From positions 1-57,681 of the IMG/VR virus record IMGVR_UViG_3300010403_000007: a stretch of 57,681 nucleotides of DNA, one strand, 5' to 3'. Shown one piece after another: positions 6,355 to 19,661 of this stretch. Position numbers and translations under genes: made by a program. Numbering within the stretch: position 1 is the first letter of the stretch; each line of letters opens with the position of its first letter. The notes below the pieces were generated by a model that was not told where the DNA came from, searched no databases, and saw only the letters and a program-made list of their open reading frames with translations. Source of the stretch: a virus. Its lineage: Duplodnaviria > Caudoviricetes.

Positions 6355-7064
6355 TTGCGCAACTCCTGAACCTTCTCGATGTCGCTGAGGAGGTGGCCGT
6401 GCGCGTAGTCCTTGCCGATGTATTCGGCGTACGCGGCTGCGTCCTGCTGGTACATCGTCCTGGCGTTCACGCGGTGGTAGCCCTCGTCCATGGCGGCCTT
6501 ACCCGCGAACGGGTGCACGTGCTCCACGATCACGTCGGGCAGGTAACGGATGCAGTTCGCGCCTTTGCCGAGGTCGCGCCAGTAGTTGTCGACGAACAGG
6601 TGCGTCAGCCTGGTCGGGGCGATGTGCCCGAGGGCGCGGGGGATGTCGGCGGTCATGGCGACCTGCGTGGGGATCCGCTCGCCCTGGAGCAGGTCGTTGC
6701 CGTAGACGAGGCCGGTGCCCATCTCGCGGAGCGTTTCGAGGTACGAGCGGTCCCAGCCTTTGGTGCGGGGCCGGTGGTCGTCGCCCATGAAGCCGACGGC
6801 GTACGGGAAGGCGGTCTTCAGGAAGAAGGCGGCGGCGGAGTTGAGGGCGCCGACCATGGTGGGGGTGCCCTGGTTGACCCACAGGTCGATGTTTGCGGCG
6901 GACCGGACGATCGCCGAGTAGGCGGGCAGCTCGGGGTCGGTCTGGTCAACGGCGGCGACGAGGCGCGTGTCGGAGGTGCAGGTGTTGCGGAACGCTTCGG
7001 TGAGTTCGGCGATGGCGCCGGGGCGGCTCCGGGTTGGCACTATGACCAGCAGGTCAGCACCCAT
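6351..7064 (-). CDS. GT-A (family 2-like) glycosyltransferase
   Basis: LLVIVPTRSRP N-terminus, FMGDDH acidic motif, VIVEHVHP. Confidence 0.8.
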   Translation of the reverse strand: MGADLLVIVPTRSRPGAIAELTEAFRNTCTSDTRLVAAVDQTDPELPAYSAIVRSAANIDLWVNQGTPTMVGALNSAAAFFLKTAFPYAVGFMGDDHRPRTKGWDRSYLETLREMGTGLVYGNDLLQGERIPTQVAMTADIPRALGHIAPTRLTHLFVDNYWRDLGKGANCIRYLPDVIVEHVHPFAGKAAMDEGYHRVNARTMYQQDAAAYAEYIGKDYAHGHLLSDIEKVQELRK

Positions 7065-7226: not shown

Positions 7227-8663
7227 TCACGACTTGGCGGCCTTCTTCAACGTGTCGTTCTCGGCCGCCTCGCGCGCCTTCTTCCCGGCGGCGGCCTTCG
7301 CCTTGCGGTACGCGGCCCGCTGCTTCTTCGACATGCCCGCGAGCTTCTTCTGCTCGGCACGCCGTTCGAGGATCTTCGCGGCCCGCTTCTTCAGGGTCTC
7401 CTTCTGCCGGGCTGCACGCCGGTCCAGGCTGTCCTGTTCCCGCGCGTCGCGGTCGCCCTGGCGGGTGGCGCCCTTGTCGGCACGGGCCGCCTCAGCGAGC
7501 TTCTGCTTGTGCGGGCCGAGGGCCTTGCGGTAGCCGGAGATCGCCTTGCGGGCCATCGCGGCGAGCTTCGGGTTGCCGGGGTTCTGCGCGGCGACCGCCT
7601 GCGCCTGCTGGATGGCCTTGGTGAGGCCGGACACGGCGGTCTGCGCGACCTGCGCCGGGGTCTTCTTCGTCTCCTCCTGATACCCGGGTTCGCGTTCGCC
7701 GCGCTTCTGGCCCTTGCACAGGCCCGGCTTGTGGGTCTGCATGCAGAACTGCCCGTCGGTGCACGCCGCCTGCAGCAGGCTCACCCCGGACGCGGCCAGA
7801 GACGGAGGGCCCTTGTACTGCCGGTTGGACATGTCCGTCGGCTCGCCTGCCACTTCGAGGAGCATCACGCAGCGGCAGTTGATGACCTGGTTCGCGGGTC
7901 CGGCCGGGTCGTGTGGGTACATCATCTCGACGCCGACGATCGCGTCGCCGGTCTTCTCGTCCACGCCCGCGCCGAGAACGAACGGTTCGGCCCACGGGAC
8001 GGTCTGGCCGTCGGCTTCACGATGGTCGGGCCGGGTGCGGTGGTCTTCGGTGGCCAGCCACCGCTTCACGTATTCGGTGTCCGGGTCCGCTTCGACGATC
8101 ATCGCGAACGCGTCGTACAGGCCGCCGTTGTAGGCGCCGACAACCTCCGTGCGGGCGATGGTCCGGGCCCGGTTCTTCCACGTCTTCTGGTCGGTGCCGG
8201 TGAGGAGTTCTTCGATCTGTTCCTGCACGTCGGGGATGCTGGCGCCGTTCGTGGTACCAGCGTCGATGATCGTCTGAACGAGGCCGAACACCTCGTCCGG
8301 GACGTTCTTGAGCCGGTTCTCGGTGCCCGCGATCCAGTTCCTGACGAACGGCCGCGAATCGAACACGACGTTGTCGCCGAACAGATCCTCATACGGGGCG
8401 GCGAGAACTTCCCGGGCGACCTTCTCCGAGTAGCGGCTGACGATGTCGGCCCACTTCTGGCCCTGGGAGAAGACGGTCATCGGGTCGGGTACGAGGGCGA
8501 GCTGCGCGACACCACCGGCGAACATGGCCGCCTGCACGGCGGCGAGCCATTCGGTGATCATGTCGAGGTACGCCTCATACAGGGCGGGCTCGTACTGCGC
8601 GAAGACGTCAACGGCCGCCTGCTGCTGCGCGGCGGCGTCGGGCAGCTGCTCCGGTGTCGGCAT
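7227..8663 (-). CDS. MuF / phage minor head protein with basic C-terminal extension
   Basis: RARTIARTE, KRWLATEDHRTRPDH, YPHDP...INCRC motifs; downstream of the portal. Confidence 0.88.
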   Translation of the reverse strand: MPTPEQLPDAAAQQQAAVDVFAQYEPALYEAYLDMITEWLAAVQAAMFAGGVAQLALVPDPMTVFSQGQKWADIVSRYSEKVAREVLAAPYEDLFGDNVVFDSRPFVRNWIAGTENRLKNVPDEVFGLVQTIIDAGTTNGASIPDVQEQIEELLTGTDQKTWKNRARTIARTEVVGAYNGGLYDAFAMIVEADPDTEYVKRWLATEDHRTRPDHREADGQTVPWAEPFVLGAGVDEKTGDAIVGVEMMYPHDPAGPANQVINCRCVMLLEVAGEPTDMSNRQYKGPPSLAASGVSLLQAACTDGQFCMQTHKPGLCKGQKRGEREPGYQEETKKTPAQVAQTAVSGLTKAIQQAQAVAAQNPGNPKLAAMARKAISGYRKALGPHKQKLAEAARADKGATRQGDRDAREQDSLDRRAARQKETLKKRAAKILERRAEQKKLAGMSKKQRAAYRKAKAAAGKKAREAAENDTLKKAAKS

Positions 8664-12591: not shown

Positions 12592-13344
12592 TCAGAAGGC
12601 GACGTCGTCGTCCTCGTCGTCGACCAGCTGCAGGCCCAGCGAGGTGCCGAACGGCCGCTTCCAGGTAGCCTCCCCCAGCTCCTCCGGCTGGACGTAGACG
12701 GACTTCGCGCCCGCCAAGTGCGCAGCGGCAGCCCGCTTGATCTTCTCGTCGTCGTCACCCTCGAACACCGGCACCGAGATGCGGGTGAAGCCGGTCACGG
12801 GCACGTCGACGGTCTTGGTGTGCAGGGCGGGCAGCGTACCCAGACCCATCTCGTCGAGCGTGTGGGCGGCGTAGGCGTAGCCCCAGTAGTGCTCGGTGAT
12901 GGCCGCCTTGAAGAACGCGACGATGGCTTCCTTCAGTTCGGCGAGGGTCATCTCCTCCGGCTGGAGGTCGTCGGGGACGTCGGCGGGGCCGCTGTAGAAC
13001 GTGACGTCGTGCAGGTCGGGAACGGCGACCTGGAACGCCCGGACGCAGCCGGTCCCGTCGATGATGCCGGTGTCCAGGGTGCGCTGGATGGCGGCGGTGA
13101 ACTTGGCGTGCGCCTCGGTCCGGCTGCTGGCCTTGATGGTGGCGCCGATGACGCCGGTGATGGGCGTGTTCACCTGGTAGGTGGCGCTGCCGGTGACGGG
13201 TGTCGCGCCGAGGCGGATCAGGTTGGTGTTGAGCCAGGTCCGGTCGATCTTGGTGTTGTAGGCGGCGCTGGCGGCGGCCTCGCTGAGGGTGGCGCGGAGC
13301 TGGCTCGCGGCGACGGCCTCGTCGTAGTCGTCGGGCTCGGTCAT
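12592..13344 (-). CDS. hypothetical protein
   Basis: 250-aa ORF with GGAGGAG RBS. Confidence 0.7.
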   Translation of the reverse strand: MTEPDDYDEAVAASQLRATLSEAAASAAYNTKIDRTWLNTNLIRLGATPVTGSATYQVNTPITGVIGATIKASSRTEAHAKFTAAIQRTLDTGIIDGTGCVRAFQVAVPDLHDVTFYSGPADVPDDLQPEEMTLAELKEAIVAFFKAAITEHYWGYAYAAHTLDEMGLGTLPALHTKTVDVPVTGFTRISVPVFEGDDDEKIKRAAAAHLAGAKSVYVQPEELGEATWKRPFGTSLGLQLVDDEDDDVAF

Positions 13345-13479
13345 GCTGTCTCCTCCTGAAGTAACTGTCTATGCATAGCATACACCATGCGTCAATCTCA
13401 CTACCCGTATACCGTTTCCCGGGCCATCTCAAAAACTGGGATGTAGGGCCGTGAAAAACGGCACCCGTTTAACTCTGTG

Positions 13480-13554
13480 TGACACGGCCGGGATTCGAAC
13501 CCGGACCTTCCCCCTTCTTCGCCAGGGGACGCTCTCCCGTTGAGCCACCGTGCC
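13480..13554 (-). ncRNA. tRNA-like RNA with enlarged (9-11 nt) anticodon loop
   Basis: Acceptor GGCACGG/CCGTGTC-A, D arm GCTC-AACGGGA-GAGC, T arm CCGGG-TTCGAAT-CCCGG; anticodon arm TCCCC-TGGCGAAGAAG-GGGGA. Confidence 0.8.
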
Positions 13555-13556
13555 AT

Positions 13557-13659
13557 GAATCCCCTCGGGGCGGTTCGCTACCGGCCTGCCGTTGAGCCCG
13601 TGATCTCCGGCGGGTCTCCGCACTCCGGCGGTGAGGCTGCCGTTCGACCGAGGGGATTC
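13557..13659 (-). ncRNA. putative structured RNA between two tRNA-like elements
   Basis: Ends pair over 12 bp (GAATCCCCTCGG / CCGAGGGGATTC); internal AACGGCAG occurs twice. Confidence 0.45.
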
Positions 13660-13708
13660 GCCATGATCCCGCAGGGGCGCGAGCCCAGGGCGCTGGGGAT
13701 GATGAACG

Positions 13709-13781
13709 TGCCCCGAGCAGGAATCGAACCTGCTGTCCCCACCCCAGGCGAGCCCTGAGGGGAGCATTGACCAACCGGGGC
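13709..13781 (-). ncRNA. tRNA-like RNA with degenerate D arm and elongated anticodon hairpin
   Basis: Acceptor GCCCCGG/TCGGGGC-A, T arm GCAGG-TTCGATT-CCTGC. Confidence 0.65.
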
Positions 13782-13892
13782 CACCCTGCTCACGGCCTAC
13801 GACGGCCAGCAGGGCGACGGTTCAGGAACCAATTCCAGGTGACCAGCGGCGGCGTGCACCGCTTCCCCGACTTCGGGGTCTTGGCCGGACCC

Positions 13893-14081
13893 TTAGACAT
13901 CGAACTCGCCCGCCTTGACGCCCTCCACGAACGCCGCCCACTCGTCCCGGGTGAAGTAGACCCTGTACTCGGGCTGCTTGGAGTTGCGAACGATGAAGTG
14001 CCCGTGCTGCTGCGACTCCGCGACCTCAACACAGTTGTTGCCGCCGTTGCCGTTGCTCCGGCTCGACTTCCGCCACTCCAT
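13893..14081 (-). CDS. DUF397 family protein
   Basis: WRKSSRS...NCVEVA...VRNSK...EWAAFVEGVKAGEFD signature. Confidence 0.9.
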   Translation of the reverse strand: MEWRKSSRSNGNGGNNCVEVAESQQHGHFIVRNSKQPEYRVYFTRDEWAAFVEGVKAGEFDV

Positions 14082-14203
14082 CAGCTGTCCTTCCTTCGCA
14101 TCGGGTCGGACAGCCACGCCGCCGCGTAGACGAGCTGCACGAGCAGCCACGTCAGCGTGAACCGCTTGTCGCCGCAGAACGTGCCGTTGTCGTAGGCGCT
14201 CAC
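14081..14203 (-). CDS. small hypothetical protein
   Basis: 40-aa ORF coupled at both ends (GTGA, TGATG). Confidence 0.45.
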   Translation of the reverse strand: MSAYDNGTFCGDKRFTLTWLLVQLVYAAAWLSDPMRRKDS

Positions 14204-14781
14204 TTGCTCTCCTCGGTCTCCACCAGCTTGTCGGCCGCGCCGCGCGCAGCGACAACCACGGCATTGCCGGTGTCGATCGCGTCCTTCAGGTGCCGCGTGA
14301 ACGCGTCCAGCAGCAGGATCGTGTCGTTCGAATCGGCGCCGTCCCACTTCGGCGCGTGCTCCAGCTCCGGAACGGCGGAGAACCGGTCCCAGTGCTCCAG
14401 CTCGAAGTGGTACGCGATCGTGCCGTCGGGCAGCTCGATACCGACGATGAAATGCCCGTCGAACATCGGGCCGTCGTCGGGGTGGTGCCGCTTCGACCGC
14501 CAGCTGTCCTTGTTGATCGCGCCGATCGTGGCGAGCACGGACGTCAGGGCGCGCCGGTGCTCATACAGCTCGTCGAACGTGTGGTAGCCGTCGGAGGTGT
14601 CGCCGGGCGCCTCGTCTTTGAACACCATCTGCCGAGGGCCGGAGACGGCCAGTGCAGGCCCCTGAAGGCTGTGAACGACGATGTCGTCGGGGCCGATCAG
14701 CTGGTCCGGATCGAACGACTCCAGCGGGGAGCCTGCGTGCCCGCCGTCGACCATGCCGTCAGCGTCGTAGGGGTCGGTCAT
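14200..14781 (-). CDS. WDGH-domain-like phage protein
   Basis: SDGYHTFDELYEHR, WRSKRHH, IAYH and APKWDG motifs. Confidence 0.65.
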   Translation of the reverse strand: MTDPYDADGMVDGGHAGSPLESFDPDQLIGPDDIVVHSLQGPALAVSGPRQMVFKDEAPGDTSDGYHTFDELYEHRRALTSVLATIGAINKDSWRSKRHHPDDGPMFDGHFIVGIELPDGTIAYHFELEHWDRFSAVPELEHAPKWDGADSNDTILLLDAFTRHLKDAIDTGNAVVVAARGAADKLVETEESK

Positions 14782-14957
14782 GACTTGTCTCCGAAGGGGG
14801 CGTTGAACCAGCCGTTGCGGGTTCCGGGCATGTTGGGGGGTCCTGCACGCATTCCGCCGGGCTTTGAGAGGTCGGCGGAGGTGTCGCAGCGGCGGCAGAT
14901 GGTGATGCCTTGGGTGAGGGGTGTTTTGCTGAATCCGCAGGCGTTGCAGTCGGCCAT
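14778..14957 (-). CDS. small Zn-ribbon protein
   Basis: CNAC...CRRC; RBS upstream; first ORF after the RNA array. Confidence 0.55.
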   Translation of the reverse strand: MADCNACGFSKTPLTQGITICRRCDTSADLSKPGGMRAGPPNMPGTRNGWFNAPFGDKS

Positions 14958-15147
14958 TTGAGGGCATCCTCCCTGGTCACGTGGGTAGGTTCCGGACTGG
15001 CCCGTCCACGCCGTGGCCACGGGGGGCGGTCTAGGTGCCAGTCCGGAACCCGCCTGGCCTGCGGTGTTGCGCGCCTCCAGGGCGTTGCTGGCCAGACAGC
15101 GGAGCGCGAGATCAATCTCTGGACTGCTTTGCTCTTCTCCGCATCCG

Positions 15148-15216
15148 TGCCGTGGAGGGAGTTGAACCCTCGACTCCGGACTCTCGCCCGGCGCTGTTGC
15201 CATCCAGCTTCACGGC
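15148..15216 (-). ncRNA. tRNA-like RNA with GNRA-capped hairpin in place of the anticodon loop
   Basis: Acceptor GCCGTG/CACGGC-A, D arm GCTG-GATGGCAA-CAGC, CCGGGC-GAGA-GTCCGG, T arm GAGGG-TTCAACT-CCCTC. Confidence 0.75.
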
Positions 15217-15371
15217 GGTACTTGGCAGGCCGGGGTGTCGGCTCCTCAGCGCGCTCACCCGGTTCCGTAGGTTGCGGGGGTGGGTCCCGTCCTGCCGTTC
15301 CTGTTACCAGATCACCGGGCCGCTACCCGCCTCGTCGCCGTGCACGGCTTGGACGGACAACCCGGTGTTCG

Positions 15372-15453
15372 CGCTCGGCGCGGGACTCGAACCCGCACGG
15401 CCGCACCCTCGCGGGTCGCCTTCTGCCAGACGGGCCGCCTTAGGCCCCCGAGC
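15372..15453 (-). ncRNA. tRNA-like RNA (T arm and acceptor conserved, other arms remodelled)
   Basis: GCTCGG/CCGAGC-G stem, T arm GCGGG-TTCGAGT-CCCGC, ACCC-GCGA-GGGT extra arm. Confidence 0.6.
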
Positions 15454-15643
15454 TAGGTGGGGACTTTCGCGGCCTGGATGCTCCGCAAGTAGGTCCCCTG
15501 CACTCCTGGATGGTGCACCACCTCTGGTGGCCGTCACGCCAGCTGGACCGGCGTCCTCCACGGTTCCCTCGCGTCCGTCCCTGTGCTCCCTTAAACGGGC
15601 GCTGGGGCGGTTTCACCTGCCGGGTACCGCTAACTCGTTTCGG

Positions 15644-15742
15644 TGGCGGCGAGGGCAGGGTTCGCACCTGCGTCACCGGGACGGCCCCGGCATCCTGGCT
15701 ACGGCTTCAAGCGCTCTCCACCGTGTTCTAGACGACCTCTCC
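15644..15742 (-). ncRNA. tRNA-like RNA with encoded CCA end and expanded D region
   Basis: GGAGAGG/CCTCGCC-G-CCA, T arm GCAGG-TGCGAAC-CCTGC, anticodon arm GCCGGG-GCCGT-CCCGGT with no U33. Confidence 0.65.
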
Positions 15743-15745
15743 TCT

Positions 15746-15846
15746 GGCTGACTCGACCCGCTCGACACTCCGAACCGAATCCTCTCCCGTGTGGCGGGAG
15801 GGTGACACTACGCGGGCCACACCCGACACGACGGATCGAGTCAGCC
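15746..15846 (-). ncRNA. putative structured RNA closed by a ~15-bp stem
   Basis: GGCTGACTCGATCCG ... CGGGTCGAGTCAGCC; ends 3 nt before the 5' end of the 15644-15742 tRNA-like element. Confidence 0.45.
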
Positions 15847-15938
15847 CCCGTCTCTCCGGGGTGTCACAAGCGCCTACGCCTGTCTCCGGGCATCTTGCCG
15901 CACCGGATTTTAGGTCCGGTACGACCTGTTGCGATACG

Positions 15939-16009
15939 TGACGCTGGACGGATTTGAACCGCCGACCTCCTGCCGGTGGCAGGTGCTCTTTCCTCTGAGC
16001 TACAACGTC
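15939..16009 (-). ncRNA. tRNA-like RNA with truncated (3-5 nt) anticodon loop
   Basis: Canonical acceptor GACGTTG/CAGCGTC-A, D arm GCTC-AGAGGAAA-GAGC, AGGTC variable loop, T arm GGCGG-TTCAAAT-CCGTC; anticodon arm CCTGCC-ACC-GGCAGG. Confidence 0.85.
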
Positions 16010-16107
16010 CGTCGCTTGCTGAAGGCGACGGCTTCGGTTGCCGCCAGGTTCAGCGTCCGGACTACGCCGCTTTTGCGCGACGTGACCGGCCCTGACGGCC
16101 CTCTGCG

Positions 16108-16218
16108 AGGTGGGAGGTGGATTCGAACCACCATCACTACGCGATCCGCTCCACGGGCCTTCCCGGGGTTCCAGGGAGCATTCCTCGCGTGGTAGCTCTC
16201 CCGTTGAGCTATCCCACC
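16108..16218 (-). ncRNA. tRNA-like RNA whose anticodon arm is replaced by a ~58-nt extended stem-loop
   Basis: Perfect acceptor GGTGGGA/TCCCACC, D arm GCTC-AACGGGA-GAGC, T arm GGTGG-TTCGAAT-CCACC. Confidence 0.8.
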
Positions 16219-16258
16219 AGTGGCTGTACCCGACCCCTCAGCGGGTACAGCCGGTCTT

Positions 16259-16492
16259 TCAGCCCTCGAACGGGGCGGTCTGTTCGTCGTCGGCGGTGCC
16301 GGGGATGGGGTCCTGGTCGAGCGGGTCGGCCTGTCCGCGCTTGGAGGCGCCGACGATGTTGACGGGGGTGAGGGTGATGACGCCTTCGCTGTCCTTGGAG
16401 GCCCAGTAGTACTCGGAGGTGGCGAGGTCACCGAGGGCTACTCGGTTGAGGTTGCCGACGGCGCGGTAGAGGGTGAGGTCGATGGTGGCGAT
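16259..16492 (-). CDS. hypothetical protein, probable ATC start
   Basis: AGGAGGAG RBS 7 nt before an in-frame ATC; no nearby ATG/GTG/TTG. Confidence 0.5.
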   Translation of the reverse strand: MATIDLTLYRAVGNLNRVALGDLATSEYYWASKDSEGVITLTPVNIVGASKRGQADPLDQDPIPGTADDEQTAPFEG

Positions 16493-16697
16493 GGGGCTTC
16501 TCCTCCTGTGCGGTGGGCCGGGCACAGGCGCCTGAGAACGTCTGTGCCCGGCCCGCTTCTTTGCGGCGGTGGTCGGCTGCTCGGTCCGCTCCCTGAACCG
16601 GTGACTTGAGCGGCGAGGATGCCTCTCATTTCATGGTTCTGGTTGACAGACCGGGGAGGCTACGGACTCGTTCAGCCTCCCACCGTCTACTGAGACC

Positions 16698-17048
16698 CTA
16701 CACCACTCCGCACGGGGCGTTCTCTGCGACCTTAGCGTGTGGGGTTTTCGGATCTCGCCGGGCCAGGATGGCGGCCCGGAAGTGCTGGAAGAAGTTGTCC
16801 CAGTCGCAGTCGGCGGGGCAACCGTCGAACGCGATGCCGGGGATCCCGGCAGCGAGGTGACCGATGATCCATGCCTGGTCAGGGCGAATCGCATCGTCTT
16901 CGCGCATGATCACGTCGGCCATGTTGTCGTTCCACCAGGGCTTTGCGGCGGGAGTGATCTTCAGCGCCCGGTGGTGCAGGGCGTCGAGCTTGGCGACCAT
17001 GAAAGTCACGTCGCGCCGGTTGATGGCGTCTGCGGCGCCCGGGTTCAC
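16698..17048 (-). CDS. hypothetical protein
   Basis: GTGA-coupled to the upstream ORF. Confidence 0.6.
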   Translation of the reverse strand: MNPGAADAINRRDVTFMVAKLDALHHRALKITPAAKPWWNDNMADVIMREDDAIRPDQAWIIGHLAAGIPGIAFDGCPADCDWDNFFQHFRAAILARRDPKTPHAKVAENAPCGVV

Positions 17049-17732: not shown

Positions 17733-17885
17733 TTACGACTTGCCCTTCCTGAAGACCAGCTTCACGGCGTCGAAGATCGAGCGGGTGGTCTTGCCGTCTC
17801 CGGTGTAGGGCTTCGACGGGGACAGGTGCTTGTCGGTGCTGGCCTGCCCGGTCGTGTAGCCGAGGTTCTTGGTGCGCTTCGTCAT
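17733..17885 (-). CDS. small basic hypothetical protein
   Basis: GGAGGAG RBS, TATGCT -10 upstream. Confidence 0.55.
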   Translation of the reverse strand: MTKRTKNLGYTTGQASTDKHLSPSKPYTGDGKTTRSIFDAVKLVFRKGKS

Positions 17886-18085
17886 CGTGTTCTCTCCTCC
17901 GTCGGTACTGTCTGCTTTAAGCATACACCATGGCGTCGACGGGAGTGGAACGGGGAACGCCCCGGGCCTCCAGGACCTGAACGGTCGACCGTGAGGTAGC
18001 CGGGGCGCCTTTAGTGTCGCAGCACTGCCGCGATTCAACCCGTGTAACCCGGGCAGGCCCGTAAGCCAGCTCGTTACCGGCCAGC

Positions 18086-19543
18086 TTAGTACGGCGAGGA
18101 CACCGGCATAAAGACGTCCGTCGGCGGCGCGGCCACCTTCACCAACTTGTTCTCCTTGCCCATCAGGAACAGACCGGCCTGCACGAGCGCGTCGATACGG
18201 TCGGGGCTGGCCGCCTCGCCGGGCACCCAGGTGCACTGCTGGTCCTCCAGCTCCAGGAACGTGCCGACGTGCTTGACGCGACCCTGCTCGTAGCGGGCGG
18301 CGACCGGTTCGGCGCGCAGCTTCTTGCCCGCCAGGGAGGTGACTTCGCGGATCGGAACGGGCCCGGGTTCGAACAGGCATCCGTCGCACTCGTCGGGGTC
18401 GCGGCAGTCGGGGGCGTGTTCGCGCTGCATCTCCCGGTAGGCGTCGGTCATGACCTGCATGAGCCACTTCTTGCCCATGTTCGTTTCGATGATCAGCCAG
18501 GTGGCGCCTTGCTGGCGAAACATCTCCCAGGCGCGGCGGGCGGCGGCGTTGCCGACGAGCTTGCAGGTCCAGTCGGCCAGGACGTAGTCGTTGCCGTCGT
18601 AGCCCCGGCCGACGGCGAGCAGGCCGGTCTCGTCTCCGGCTCAAGTGGCGCCGGGGTCCATGGAGACGACGACCTGCTTGAGTTCGGGGAGGTCGGAACG
18701 CTTCACCCGATTGTTTTCGATCATGGGCCGGGTCCACAGGGCGCCCTCGATCTCTTCCAGCAGGTGCCCGTACAACTCCTGAAGCCCGGCCCGGGTGCCC
18801 TCGTAGAGCTTCTTCAGTTCTTCGACGACGTGCTTCGACAGGTTCATGATGTTGTCGAAGATCGAGCCGGTCGTGATGACCACGGTGCCGTCGGTCTTGT
18901 GCTGCCATTCGATCAGCAGCTTGATCGGCTTCGGGGTAGTCGTGACGACGGCGCGGGGATGGTCGTCGATCAGCGGGGCGCGCAGCGACGGCAGGATGCC
19001 CTCGTACCAGGCGGCGTACGTGTACCGCCACTTCGCCAGCTCGTCGGCCCACAGCCCGGCCAGGTTGAAGCCACGGCCGACGTCGGCGTTGTCGGCGCCC
19101 TCGAAGTAGATGAGCTGACCCGACGCGAACGTGATCATCAGCTTCGGGCTTTTGTTGTACGTGAAGTCGCGGCCCTTCTTCATCCCCATGCGGGCGAGGA
19201 TGGAAAGGATGCCGGAGTTGCCCTCGATGCAGGCCGTGCGGCAGTCGTTGAGGGTTTCGGCGATGACGAGCCACTCGGTGCGCTGGCCGACCATGTCGAC
19301 CGGGTGCTGGAAGACGCGGTCGAGGAGATCCTCGGCGCCGGTGCGGGTCTTGCCCCAGCCACGGCCGGACCGGATGAGCCAGACGAGCCAGTCGCCGGGC
19401 GGCCGGAACTGCTCGGGGCGACCGACCCACCACCAGGCGCCCTTCTCGATGTCGTCGAGGGTGTGGCGCTGCTGTGCGGCGAGCCAGCGGCGGCGCAGCG
19501 GGGCGGGGAGCAGGGCGAGCTTCTGTGCGGCGGACAGGCTCAT
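18086..19543 (-). CDS. terL: terminase large subunit, interrupted by an in-frame TGA at 18641-18643
   Basis: Walker A GRGWGKT, Walker B LWADE, VTTTP motif C, LQELYG; nuclease VSMDPGAT*AGDETG ... IIETN ... SPDRIDA in the same frame. Confidence 0.9.
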
Positions 19544-19661
19544 GATCGAAAACTATCCGAGTAGGCCGCTTCCAGGGCTGGGACTCCCCTCCGCCCGTCG
19601 CGCGGTGCCCGGGGGGTGCCGGGCTGCCCGGCACGCGGCACACCCCCGGCCGCGCTCGCCA

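Follow-up and report, generated by a model that had tools for sequence, protein, structure and literature searches.

Folded spacers between the tRNA-like units of a soil phage genome: at least five are conserved as RNA structures

Phage tRNA islands are usually interpreted as codon-supply or anti-defence sets of tRNAs. The window, i.e. the whole stretch of DNA that was analysed (57,681 nt), is a complete virus record of 57.7 kb with terminal repeats; its source is an uncultured soil phage. In the original prediction, the spacers were described as closed RNAs folding on their own and as a possible cargo (protein sponges, antitoxin RNAs or RNA-polymerase mimics) released by processing at the flanking tRNA mimics. 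Our best reading, to which we give roughly even chances, is a non-coding, polycistronic array made of tRNA mimics together with structured modules, with 16252-13454 on the (-) strand forming one transcription unit interrupted by four small genes. Two types of parts alternate along this stretch, tRNA-shaped units unable to decode and closed, folded RNA modules, distributed between array 1 (about 1.25 kb) and array 2, the second cluster that includes 13557-13659.

The claim that the ~1.3-kb stretch holds no credible gene was borne out. GC3 is flat in the arrays (0.66-0.72) as compared with 0.90-0.96 in the four adjoining genes, and all array ORFs of at least 40 aa have a GC3 of at most 0.76 and a GC2 of at least 0.57, whereas GC2 is 0.40-0.52 in these four real genes. 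Small protein-coding ORFs were rejected on this basis, the codon-position GC skew of the neighbouring genes being absent from every array ORF. No sigma-70-like promoter was found in 13300-16700 (0.2 expected) and a scan of the (-) strand of this region returned no canonical intrinsic terminator (G + C-rich hairpin followed by a T run). The sole hairpin with a T run, located by reading the sequence and having too few G-C pairs for the scan, lies at 13454-13470 (-), downstream of the last tRNA-like unit, and is likely the terminator of the array transcript. Two runs contained 13400-16300, both of the DNA type and one of them possibly the source sample, and no RNA run was listed.

All tRNA-like units lie on the (-) strand and four of them are supported by the Rfam tRNA model, none with a normal anticodon loop. 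Unit A (16108-16218; 41.7 bits for a gathering score of 29) has its 17-nt anticodon arm replaced by about 57 nt; the unit hereafter called TLS (15939-16009; 56.9 bits) has an “anticodon arm” made of a 6-bp stem and a 3-4-nt loop, this loop length being found in 14 of 14 relatives; unit E (15147-15217; 39.2 bits) has a 6- or 8-nt “anticodon” loop and gene G (13480-13554; 54.2 bits) an 8-nt one. Units C, D and F were not recognised by this model at E <= 10. Unit C (15648-15745; fold z-score +0.98) is cloverleaf-like with a long extra arm, and its T-arm part resembles a tRNA match found elsewhere in the relatives G002 and G003; unit D (15378-15456, approximate ends) is tRNA-like by its T arm and fold only; unit F (13710-13781) is so by its acceptor and T arm only, with a weak match of 19.1 bits to the tRNA-Sec model. 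An encoded CCA is absent from the 3' side of the units. Since these three units are not recognised and the T loop of TLS has lost the usual TTC letters in G002 and G004, recognition by RNase P and RNase Z is uncertain for about half of the units. Every unit of the window has a closed hairpin 0-8 nt upstream, in agreement with the prediction that several spacers abut tRNA-like ends.

The folding of the spacers was the first ground on which they had been singled out. When the eight elements initially listed were folded on the (-) strand and compared with shuffles, all eight stems were present, with z-scores of -5.08 (14988-15050), -1.82 (15224-15296), -2.71 (15313-15368), -1.84 (15459-15498), -3.65 (15746-15846), -5.34 (15897-15925), -3.93 (16018-16089) and -2.14 (13557-13659). 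These energies are however ordinary beside those of 60 stem-closed control segments chosen outside the arrays (mean z -2.04), of which 52% reach -1.8 or below, 25% -2.7, 15% -3.6 and 7% -5. Unbiased 100-nt sliding windows over the first 30 kb of the (-) strand gave a mean z of -0.45 in the arrays (n = 31) against -0.36 in the rest (n = 559; Mann-Whitney p = 0.24), and stem-closed segments of at least 9 pairs (Watson-Crick and G-U) occur at 11.8/kb outside versus 13.2/kb inside the arrays. By fold energy, the arrays cannot be told from the rest of the genome or from coding sequence, and fold-energy z-scores carry no information in a genome of 67% G + C. The expectation of a folding better than that of shuffles held for stem length in two cases only. 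A boundary-free count gave 16 stems in array 1 against 9.35 +/- 3.2 in 200 shuffles (P = 0.03) and 7 against 6.4 in array 2 (P = 0.47), where long stems are not in excess; perfect stems of at least 10 bp occur at 2.31/kb in the arrays (4 stems) versus 0.57/kb elsewhere (32 stems). The longest stem of array 1 (16 bp, 15746-15846) was reached by none of the 200 shuffles and the 15-bp stem of 14987-15051 is far above the mean longest stem of shuffles (11.2); among closing stems, only these two beat the shuffles.

Comparison with relatives was more informative. About twenty related soil phages, drawn from IMG/VR and metagenome phages, keep several of the folded spacer elements; the phages carrying the array are high in G + C and their hosts are probably actinomycetes. 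To look for cultured relatives, 13350-16300 was compared by blastn with 50,697 phage records; the matches were limited to a protein gene in Actinoplanes phage phiAsp2 and a chance one of 53 nt. The gene 14200-14967 used as protein query led to four loci devoid of arrays and of ARAGORN tRNA calls, the gene 12592-13344 led to no relatives, and an 88-aa gene is the only neighbouring protein leading to a relative (one). A pattern built on the P0 element described below matched 18 stretches, corresponding to five new true relatives, five known loci (L007, L011, L063, L066 and L067) and eight stretches rejected as chance for lying in unrelated sequence; a pattern scan with the X element gave no new contig. 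Near-duplicates were dropped or counted once (G005 of G002, L061 of L059, L065 of L064). The number and order of the units vary among relatives, and the window carries an insertion of about 500 nt (15311-15843), while each type of module moves between genomes as a block with one type of tRNA-like unit.

This comparison supports selection for RNA structure, on the transcribed (-) strand, in at least five spacer elements: M1, P0 with M2, hairpin B plus helix A, M9 and M8. Covariation in homologues was thus found for four of the spacers initially listed (14988-15050, 15224-15296, part of 16018-16089 and 13557-13659), strongly for the first, for 13557-13659 and for a hairpin at 16009-16031, and moderately for 15224-15296; none of the relatives has a homologue of the four others (15313-15368, 15459-15498, 15746-15846 and 15897-15925). 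Half of the original examples are therefore specific to the window, and their case depends on fold energies that are ordinary among the controls.

M1 (14984-15054) is a three-tier hairpin with a 15+2-bp lower stem. In 15 sequences (14 distinct), 97.2% of 392 cells are paired, compared with 38-52% when the partner strand is slid, and 13 of the 28 pairs have changed on both sides. Its covariation score is 0.481 against 0.157 in shuffles, of which none out of 500 reached 0.481, keeping in mind that the shared ancestry of the relatives makes shuffle controls overstate significance, the slid-partner control being fairer yet partly derived from these same sequences. The alignment was re-cut around the M1 core to replace an out-of-register MAFFT alignment, and the outer stem was also predicted in all 15 single-sequence folds. 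With 30 G-U for 4 A-C cells, the strand test points to the (-) strand, the same counts being uninformative on strand for M2 and M7b. The 21-nt apex (15005-15025), which contains a perfect 12-bp palindrome, shows no change in 7 of 15 homologues and 1-3 substitutions in each of the others. The core is present in a single copy per genome: a second partial copy in G003 was discarded for lying inside a gene, and an exact 20-mer of the core found in seven MAG contigs of unrelated phyla and in four unrelated metagenome contigs was attributed to chance, having no M1 context. In all 15 phages M1 comes last in the array, 10-35 nt upstream of the ribosome-binding site of the next gene; the first genes downstream are unrelated in different phages, so M1 belongs to the array and not to one particular gene.

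P0 (15298-15310, -) is a 3-bp hairpin with a GTAA tetraloop whose 13-mer, CTGGTAACAGGAA, is exact in 15 of 16 aligned homologues (G003a has two mismatches) and has a single exact copy in the window. It precedes M2 (15224-15296, -), a three-way junction with a 6-bp closing stem, in fixed surroundings: the 13-mer lies in front of this module, and AGTACC and then a tRNA-like unit follow it. Although M2 alignments are small (6-8 sequences, several of them closely related), 85% of cells are paired versus 20-46% when slid, with 6 of 20 pairs compensatory in six sequences, and the fold is also supported in a 7-sequence alignment from which G004 was left out because its longer stem misaligns.

In the spacer 16018-16089, for which two hairpins had been proposed, part of the structure proved conserved and the second hairpin (16018-16054) mispaired. 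The conserved fold is hairpin B (16009-16031, -), with a 7-bp stem and a 9-nt loop, in which 95.9% of cells are paired over 14 of 14 sequences and 5 of 7 pairs are compensatory; it was independently predicted by RNAalifold, which did not return the second hairpin of the original prediction. The 5' strand of a further helix, helix A (16049-16054, -), pairs with 16018-16023, which belong to the loop of hairpin B; over 14 sequences its 6 pairs have 86.9% of their cells paired, and 3 of them have changed on both sides, in what would be either a pseudoknot or an alternative fold. Taken jointly, both helices have 91.8% of cells paired versus 28-40% when slid, and 8 of 13 pairs compensatory (14 sequences). 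Where the first hairpin proposed, M7a (16057-16089, -), lies in the window, relatives appear by eye to carry a hairpin whose sequence differs. The 3' strand of hairpin B ends at the first base of TLS, and the leader is paired up to position -1 of this unit in all 14 phages. A leader without any single-stranded part should hinder rather than help cleavage by RNase P.

Array 2 conforms to the same organisation, as had been anticipated for 13557-13659. This module, M8 (103 nt, -), has a 12-bp closing stem located 2 nt upstream of the last tRNA-like gene, and a closed module of 87-116 nt is found at this place in seven of seven genomes with six different closing-stem sequences. M9 (13661-13705, -), absent from the initial list, combines an 8-bp stem, a near-invariant 6-nt bulge and an apical hairpin; the same fold was predicted singly in seven of seven homologues (six distinct), the judgement resting on single-sequence folds only as the MAFFT alignment was out of register.

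Unpaired or apical sequences are invariant or nearly so in several of these modules, which argues for a function beyond spacing, and the modules lie flush against tRNA-like units, the geometry that a release by tRNA-processing enzymes would need. Such a release is plausible from the sequences at hand. Host tRNA-processing enzymes would cut the long transcript where a unit has retained its T arm and a 7-bp acceptor stem, with RNase P acting on the 5' side of the unit and RNase Z or exonucleases on its 3' side, and the modules would end either as free RNAs of 60-110 nt, their paired ends protecting them from exonucleases, or as 5' domains attached to the units. The latter would likely be the fate of hairpin B, whose leader is paired to -1. 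Together with the movement of module and unit as a block, this pairing suggests that modules may not be freed cargo but parts of composite RNAs, in which they would form the 5' domains. The invariant apices could serve as contact surfaces for a protein or RNA partner. Located too near the next ribosome-binding site for a promoter in between, and always last, M1 probably stays with the downstream mRNA, at or near its 5' end, as a boundary element acting as a double-strand-specific processing site, as a 5' stabiliser, or both. RNase III-type processing hairpins of phage early transcripts consist of about two turns of coaxial helix broken by an internal loop, and M1 has this shape (15+2-bp lower stem, 7-nt one-sided loop, 11 pairs above). 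As to the cargo idea, the selection of at least five spacers as RNA, their near-invariant apices and their position against the units speak for it, but nothing was found that points to a role as sponge, antitoxin or RNA-polymerase mimic. That the locus represents an undescribed type of phage non-coding RNA locus, where non-decoding mimics alternate with at least five new families of modules that are freed by host tRNA-processing enzymes and act in trans through their invariant apices, is possible, though we would rather bet against it; in trans, the modules might be components of an RNA assembly, or might serve as decoys or sponges that engage host enzymes or defence nucleases specific for tRNA ends.

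Modules could instead act in cis only, as insulators or processing guides for the folding of the units within a precursor of 67% G + C, with no role once removed. Their location 0-8 nt before the units with which they move fits this explanation, as does a pairing that is kept while the stem sequence drifts freely, which is expected if the fold alone matters. It remains somewhat unlikely in our view: the most conserved letters are unpaired or apical (M1 apex, P0 13-mer, M9 bulge) while an insulator needs no fixed loops, and the units, being unable to decode, offer no obvious product to insulate.

A further explanation would turn the whole of array 1 (~1.25 kb) into one large composite RNA, with units and modules as uncut domains. 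Precedents exist beside tRNA islands: published descriptions present GOLLD and ROOL as structured RNAs of phages and prophages, often close to such islands, with tRNAs sometimes in the GOLLD linker and with GOLLD reported in Mycobacterium tRNA arrays. The GNRA-type tetraloop of P0 and the loop-to-tail helix A also recall the long-range contacts of large RNAs. But GOLLD and ROOL, structured non-coding phage RNAs near tRNA islands like the present array, each form one RNA of 580-800 nt or longer, whereas the elements described here are separate cassettes of 30-110 nt. Neither model matched at E <= 10, and both families were rejected. The variable number and order of the units and the tolerated insertion of ~500 nt fit better with independent cassettes, making a composite RNA distinctly unlikely.

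The simple hairpins (H0, M6, perhaps M1) might also be terminators or attenuators without a T run. H0 (16222-16252, -; 11 bp, z -4.53 with chosen ends) directly follows the stop of the gene 16525-16259, 3 nt before the first tRNA-like unit, and the phage has hairpins of comparable strength in other intergenic positions. Tail-less terminators have reportedly been observed in an actinophage and proposed for actinomycetes and their phages. Against this, no hairpin-plus-T-run site occurs inside the arrays on the (-) strand, the multi-branched M2, M8 and M5 are not terminator-shaped, and the genes whose ribosome-binding site lies 10-35 nt beyond M1 must be transcribed through it; moreover, mycobacterial RNA polymerase requires a U-tract, according to the abstract of PMC3993855. 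We consider this explanation highly unlikely for the locus.

Part of the locus may be explained by decayed tRNA genes or by GC-rich non-coding DNA that folds by chance. Three of the window-specific hairpins M3 (15313-15368, -), M4 (15459-15498, -), M5 (15746-15846, -; 101 nt) and M6 (15897-15925, -) sit within the insertion, M3 at its 3' edge and M5 at its 5' edge, and these hairpins would belong to this recent event. M3, M4 and M6, without homologue and with stems and z-scores within the range of cherry-picked controls, may be no more than GC-rich folding, like the arrays overall, which fold no better than the genome; M6, in particular, has a 7-nt loop on an 11-bp stem, the mean length of the longest stem in shuffles. 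M5 is an exception by its 16 contiguous closing pairs. For M1, M2, hairpin B, M8 and M9, however, chance is excluded by conservation and compensatory change, and no tRNA-model match lies inside any spacer at E <= 10, leaving this explanation very little probability for the locus as a whole. An action of the elements as DNA (operators, origin hairpins or recombination sites), evoked by the palindromic, nearly invariant M1 apex that resembles a protein-binding site, is hardly probable at all, given a compensatory pairing over 28 positions far beyond the needs of a dimeric operator, a single copy per genome, and G-U cells that would be mismatches on the opposite strand or in a symmetric cruciform.

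The array reading was also compared with known RNA families. A search with 4227 Rfam models, covering the window (both strands of 13300-16700 at E <= 10) and four relatives, matched no spacer, neither with the 6S/Ms1, SRP and HDV-like ribozyme models suggested beforehand nor with other self-cleaving ribozymes, T-box, 6C or raiA; remaining matches were of the tRNA clan, or at chance level (E 0.01-7) and overlapping tRNA-like units or a hairpin at 16510-16559. Spacers as tRNAs or tRNA remnants were rejected, RF00005 matching only at 16108-16218, 15939-16009, 15147-15217 and 13480-13554. Dispersed palindromic repeats (REP, MITE-like) were rejected as well, the M5 arm (without a second copy in the window or in any of the loci) and the M1 core being single-copy and the repeats common to spacers being limited to pieces of T and D arms and a single word of 11 nt.

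Murine gammaherpesvirus 68 transcribes a tRNA-like unit followed by pre-miRNA hairpins that are freed by tRNase Z. As in the original prediction, non-aminoacylated tRNA mimics act there as handles for the processing of adjacent hairpins; this system is however eukaryotic, relies on polymerase III and has its hairpins 3' of the mimic, while the present conserved modules lie 5' of it and are known from sequence. RNAC and RNAD lie in the tRNA cluster of phage T4 and mature together with the tRNAs. Also named species 1 and 2 stable RNAs, they are small phage RNAs of unknown function according to PMC9697503. The present locus differs by its neighbours, which are non-decoding tRNA mimics, by its modules, which form at least five families, and by its phages, high in G + C and probably infecting actinomycetes. 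YrlA RNAs are similarly modular, with a tRNA-like domain joined to a protein-binding stem, and some are cut by RNase P (PMC4201824); their order is permuted (T arm, closed acceptor stem-loop, D arm) and both ends are in a Ro-binding stem, whereas the units here keep the usual order of arms and their acceptor ends are open. Y RNA/YrlA was rejected, since Ro60/TROVE (PF05731) is found nowhere in the complete genome, control genomes giving matches in the same search, and no Rfam model matched. VIPR arrays, described in bioRxiv 10.64898/2026.04.26.720920 as 9-16 tandem pentamers (GGY and two variable bases) with a Vipr protein gene, were rejected too, no run of at least four such pentamers being present on either strand of the arrays; the sole similar run of the genome has four units (8024-8043). 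No description of such an array was found in the literature, on which supplementary lists of phage YrlA and GOLLD loci might bear.

As a whole, the island recurs in about twenty soil phages; a normal anticodon loop has been shown for none of its units, and it has a conserved grammar of handle and module. If modules were released and active, it would constitute a bacterial-virus counterpart of the herpesvirus processing at tRNA handles, with several new RNA families. M1, P0 with M2, hairpin B with TLS, M8 and M9 are suited to covariance models, by which the locus could be charted in viromes and metatranscriptomes and its processing made directly testable.

Three small elements complete the (-) strand inventory. 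The X element (15575-15610; z -2.88), a two-tier hairpin, is homologous to the D-loop insert of TLS in L062, L066 and L067; an 11-bp hairpin (13780-13818), returned by the stem scan, overlaps the 5' end of unit F by 2 nt; and a small hairpin of 5 bp with a 6-nt loop (15846-15861) is kept in M44, G002 and G004.

With its 57,681 bp and direct terminal repeats, the window is a complete virus record, and it carries on its minus strand all the elements discussed here. WDGH and DUF397 domains in the genes adjoining the two arrays, together with a protein gene of Actinoplanes phage phiAsp2, the sole cultured relative at the DNA level, make an actinomycete the likely host. At default settings, ARAGORN and Rfam called two tRNAs in the window, and with permissive filters four units exceeded the gathering score of the Rfam tRNA model: unit A (16108-16218), in which about 57 nt replace the 17-nt anticodon arm; the unit TLS (15939-16009), with a 6-bp stem and a 3-nt loop at the position of this arm; unit E (15147-15217), with an anticodon loop of 6 or 8 nt; and the last tRNA-like gene, G (13480-13554), with an 8-nt loop. 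None of these four has the normal 7-nt anticodon loop. Units C (about 15648-15745), D (about 15378-15456) and F (about 13710-13781) are tRNA-like just by their T arm and cloverleaf-like fold. ARAGORN read a four-base anticodon at 13479-13554. The 6-bp stem of TLS, with a loop of 3-4 nt, is kept in 14 of 14 relatives; its homologues in L006 (about 6900-6945), L060 and L062-L067 bear a D-loop insertion of about 40 nt, itself a small hairpin, and the usual TTC letters of its T loop have been lost in G002 and G004.

Each tRNA-like unit of the window is preceded, 0-8 nt ahead, by a closed hairpin or module: 16222-16252 for unit A, hairpin B (16009-16031) for TLS, M5 (15746-15846) for unit C, M4 (15459-15498) for unit D, M2 (15224-15296) for unit E, 13780-13818 for unit F and M8 (13557-13659) for the last gene. 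The spacers of the window and of four relatives matched none of the 4227 Rfam families, no repeats were found among spacers or against the rest of the genome, and searches revealed neither VIPR guide-array pentamer repeats in the arrays nor a Ro60 gene in the phage genome. An array of such composition was not found described in the literature, supplementary tables lying outside the search; the nearest precedents include T4 RNAC and RNAD, GOLLD and ROOL next to phage tRNA islands, and herpesvirus units joining a tRNA mimic to a hairpin.

Relatives were collected by several routes: the 88-aa upstream gene led to one syntenic phage, L006; a 21-mer common to the window and L006 led to five IMG/VR contigs and three true metagenome contigs; a pattern built on TLS gave ten further stretches and one built on the 13-mer at 15298-15310 five further true relatives. 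After removal of near-duplicates (e.g. G005, 99.9% identical to G002), parts of the arrays were present in about nineteen distinct contigs. In the closest relative the flanking genes are 72-82% identical to those of the window, hence the relatives are divergent enough to reveal compensatory change.

Sequence comparison shows the conserved modules to be strand-specific RNA folds whose apical sequences are fixed, as is their placement beside non-decoding tRNA mimics. RNase P and RNase Z act on tRNA ends, and units that retain the T arm along with an acceptor stem of 7 bp would be cut at their ends by these enzymes. The modules in between would become separate RNAs, their paired ends resisting nucleases; if pairing takes up the whole leader, as ahead of TLS, mimic and module would probably remain one RNA. 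Insulators acting only in cis are disfavoured by the invariant loops, and a single large composite RNA with one fixed fold by the variable order of the cassettes. Other, less likely readings are tail-less terminators, DNA sites and chance. Neither canonical terminators nor sigma-70-like promoters were found inside the arrays.

The terminal module M1 (14984-15054) was aligned over 15 sequences, 14 of them distinct. Its 28 proposed pairs are realised in 97.2% of 392 cells, versus 38-52% when the 3' partner is moved by 1-3 columns, and 13 of the 28 pairs show two-sided changes, bearing out the stem originally predicted at 14988-15050. Folded singly, all 15 sequences give the 15-bp outer stem, and the inner tiers deviate in about five. 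In the lower stem, the seven uppermost pairs exist in at least 10 different sequences, and the apex (15005-15025) is identical in 7 of 15 sequences with 1-3 base differences in the others. The cells contain 30 G-U against 4 A-C combinations, an excess indicating that the fold is that of the minus-strand RNA and not of the DNA or the opposite strand, which argues against DNA sites. The covariation score of M1 (0.481, versus 0.157 in shuffles) was equalled in none of 500 shuffles. M1 is always the final array element, with the ribosome-binding site of the next gene 10-35 nt downstream, and this first gene differs from phage to phage. Most likely it would be retained on the mRNA downstream, where it would mark a boundary or stabilise the transcript; in shape it is also compatible with a double-strand-specific processing site.

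Energy was far less discriminating. All listed hairpins fold as first described (z -1.8 to -5.3), with ends that had been picked at complementary sequences, so three controls were run. Unbiased 100-nt minus-strand windows averaged z -0.45 in the arrays (n=31) versus -0.36 elsewhere in the first 30 kb (n=559; p=0.24). Segments closed by at least 9 contiguous pairs occurred at 13.2/kb inside the arrays versus 11.8/kb outside, and 60 such control segments had a mean z of -2.04 (25% at or below -2.7, 7% at or below -5). A boundary-free stem count exceeded dinucleotide shuffles in array 1 (16 vs 9.35 +/- 3.2, P=0.03), with no excess found in array 2 (7 vs 6.4, P=0.47). The longest stem of array 1 (16 bp, 15746-15846) was matched in 0 of 200 shuffles, and the 15-bp stem at 14987-15051 lies well over their mean longest stem of 11.2. 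Perfect stems of at least 10 bp occur at four times the density in the arrays, a ratio based on four stems. Judged by energy alone, most listed elements therefore do not exceed what chance gives at the 67% G+C of this genome. The predicted absence of genes is confirmed by codon-position GC, which shows a strong skew in the flanking genes and none in the arrays.

The invariant 13-mer P0 (15298-15310), which the window contains once in exact form, folds into a hairpin of 3 bp capped by a GTAA loop, and opens in 16 homologues a block ordered as 13-mer, closed module, fixed AGTACC and tRNA-like unit. The module M2 exists as a long three-way junction (the window and seven others) and as a short rod (eight homologues). 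In six long-type sequences 85% of cells pair, versus 20-46% when slid, with 6 of 20 pairs compensatory, and RNAalifold on seven sequences likewise recovered the closing stem and arms; the short type is compensatory at 5 of 12 predicted pairs. Ahead of TLS, RNAalifold on 14 sequences placed the conserved 7-bp hairpin B at 16009-16031 (95.9% of cells pairing, 5 of 7 pairs compensatory), its 3' strand stopping at the first base of TLS in 14 of 14. Six bases of its loop, 16018-16023, are able to pair with 16049-16054 (helix A; 86.9% of cells, three compensatory pairs); the two helices would make up a loop-to-tail pseudoknot or else be alternatives to each other. Two hairpins had been proposed at 16018-16089: one, at 16057-16089, has positional counterparts of other sequence (judged by eye, uncounted), and the other differs from the conserved pairing; its inner helix is missing in e.g. 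G004.

In array 2, M8 measures 87-116 nt in all seven genomes, where 9-12 contiguous pairs close it and the next tRNA-like gene begins 2-8 nt after it, which supports the element foreseen at 13557-13659; its closing stem has six different sequences, and the 12-bp stem by itself is within shuffle expectation. Directly upstream, the previously unlisted M9 (13661-13705) combines a stem of 8 bp with a 6-nt bulge of nearly invariant sequence and a hairpin at its apex, a structure predicted for each of seven homologues (six distinct) folded singly. An 11-nt word is directly repeated in M9 and in the X element (15575-15610), whose folds are unlike; both may have a distant common origin.

About 500 nt of the window (15311-15843) are an insertion missing from every relative, containing M3 (15313-15368), M4, M5 and two tRNA-like units, with closed hairpins at both ends. 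In all relatives only about 40-50 nt span the interval from the small hairpin 15846-15861 to the 13-mer. No homologues of M3, M4, M5 or M6 (15897-15925, just upstream of the insertion) were found in the relatives compared, and among these four the 16-bp closing stem of M5 alone is statistically outstanding. Of the eight spacers in the original prediction, 14988-15050, 15224-15296, 13557-13659 and part of 16018-16089 are conserved; the other four are these elements, seen in the window only. The X element, inside the insertion, is homologous to the D-loop insert of a tRNA-like unit in three other phages, indicating that modules move between contexts.

Around the arrays, a 13-bp perfect hairpin (16515-16554) directly precedes the ribosome-binding site of the gene 16525-16259, and L006 showed no counterpart at this position. 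The extended -10-like box TGTATGCT (13377-13384, minus strand), 5' of the gene 13344-12592, follows a hairpin-plus-T-run (13454-13470) and is conserved in L006 (about 8158-8170). The long minus-strand ORF 17733-19643 has the GC pattern expected of the opposite strand (0.84 at position 1, 0.53 at position 3); it is probably the plus strand that encodes the real gene, which would place the start of the array-bearing minus-strand operon near 17.3-17.7 kb.
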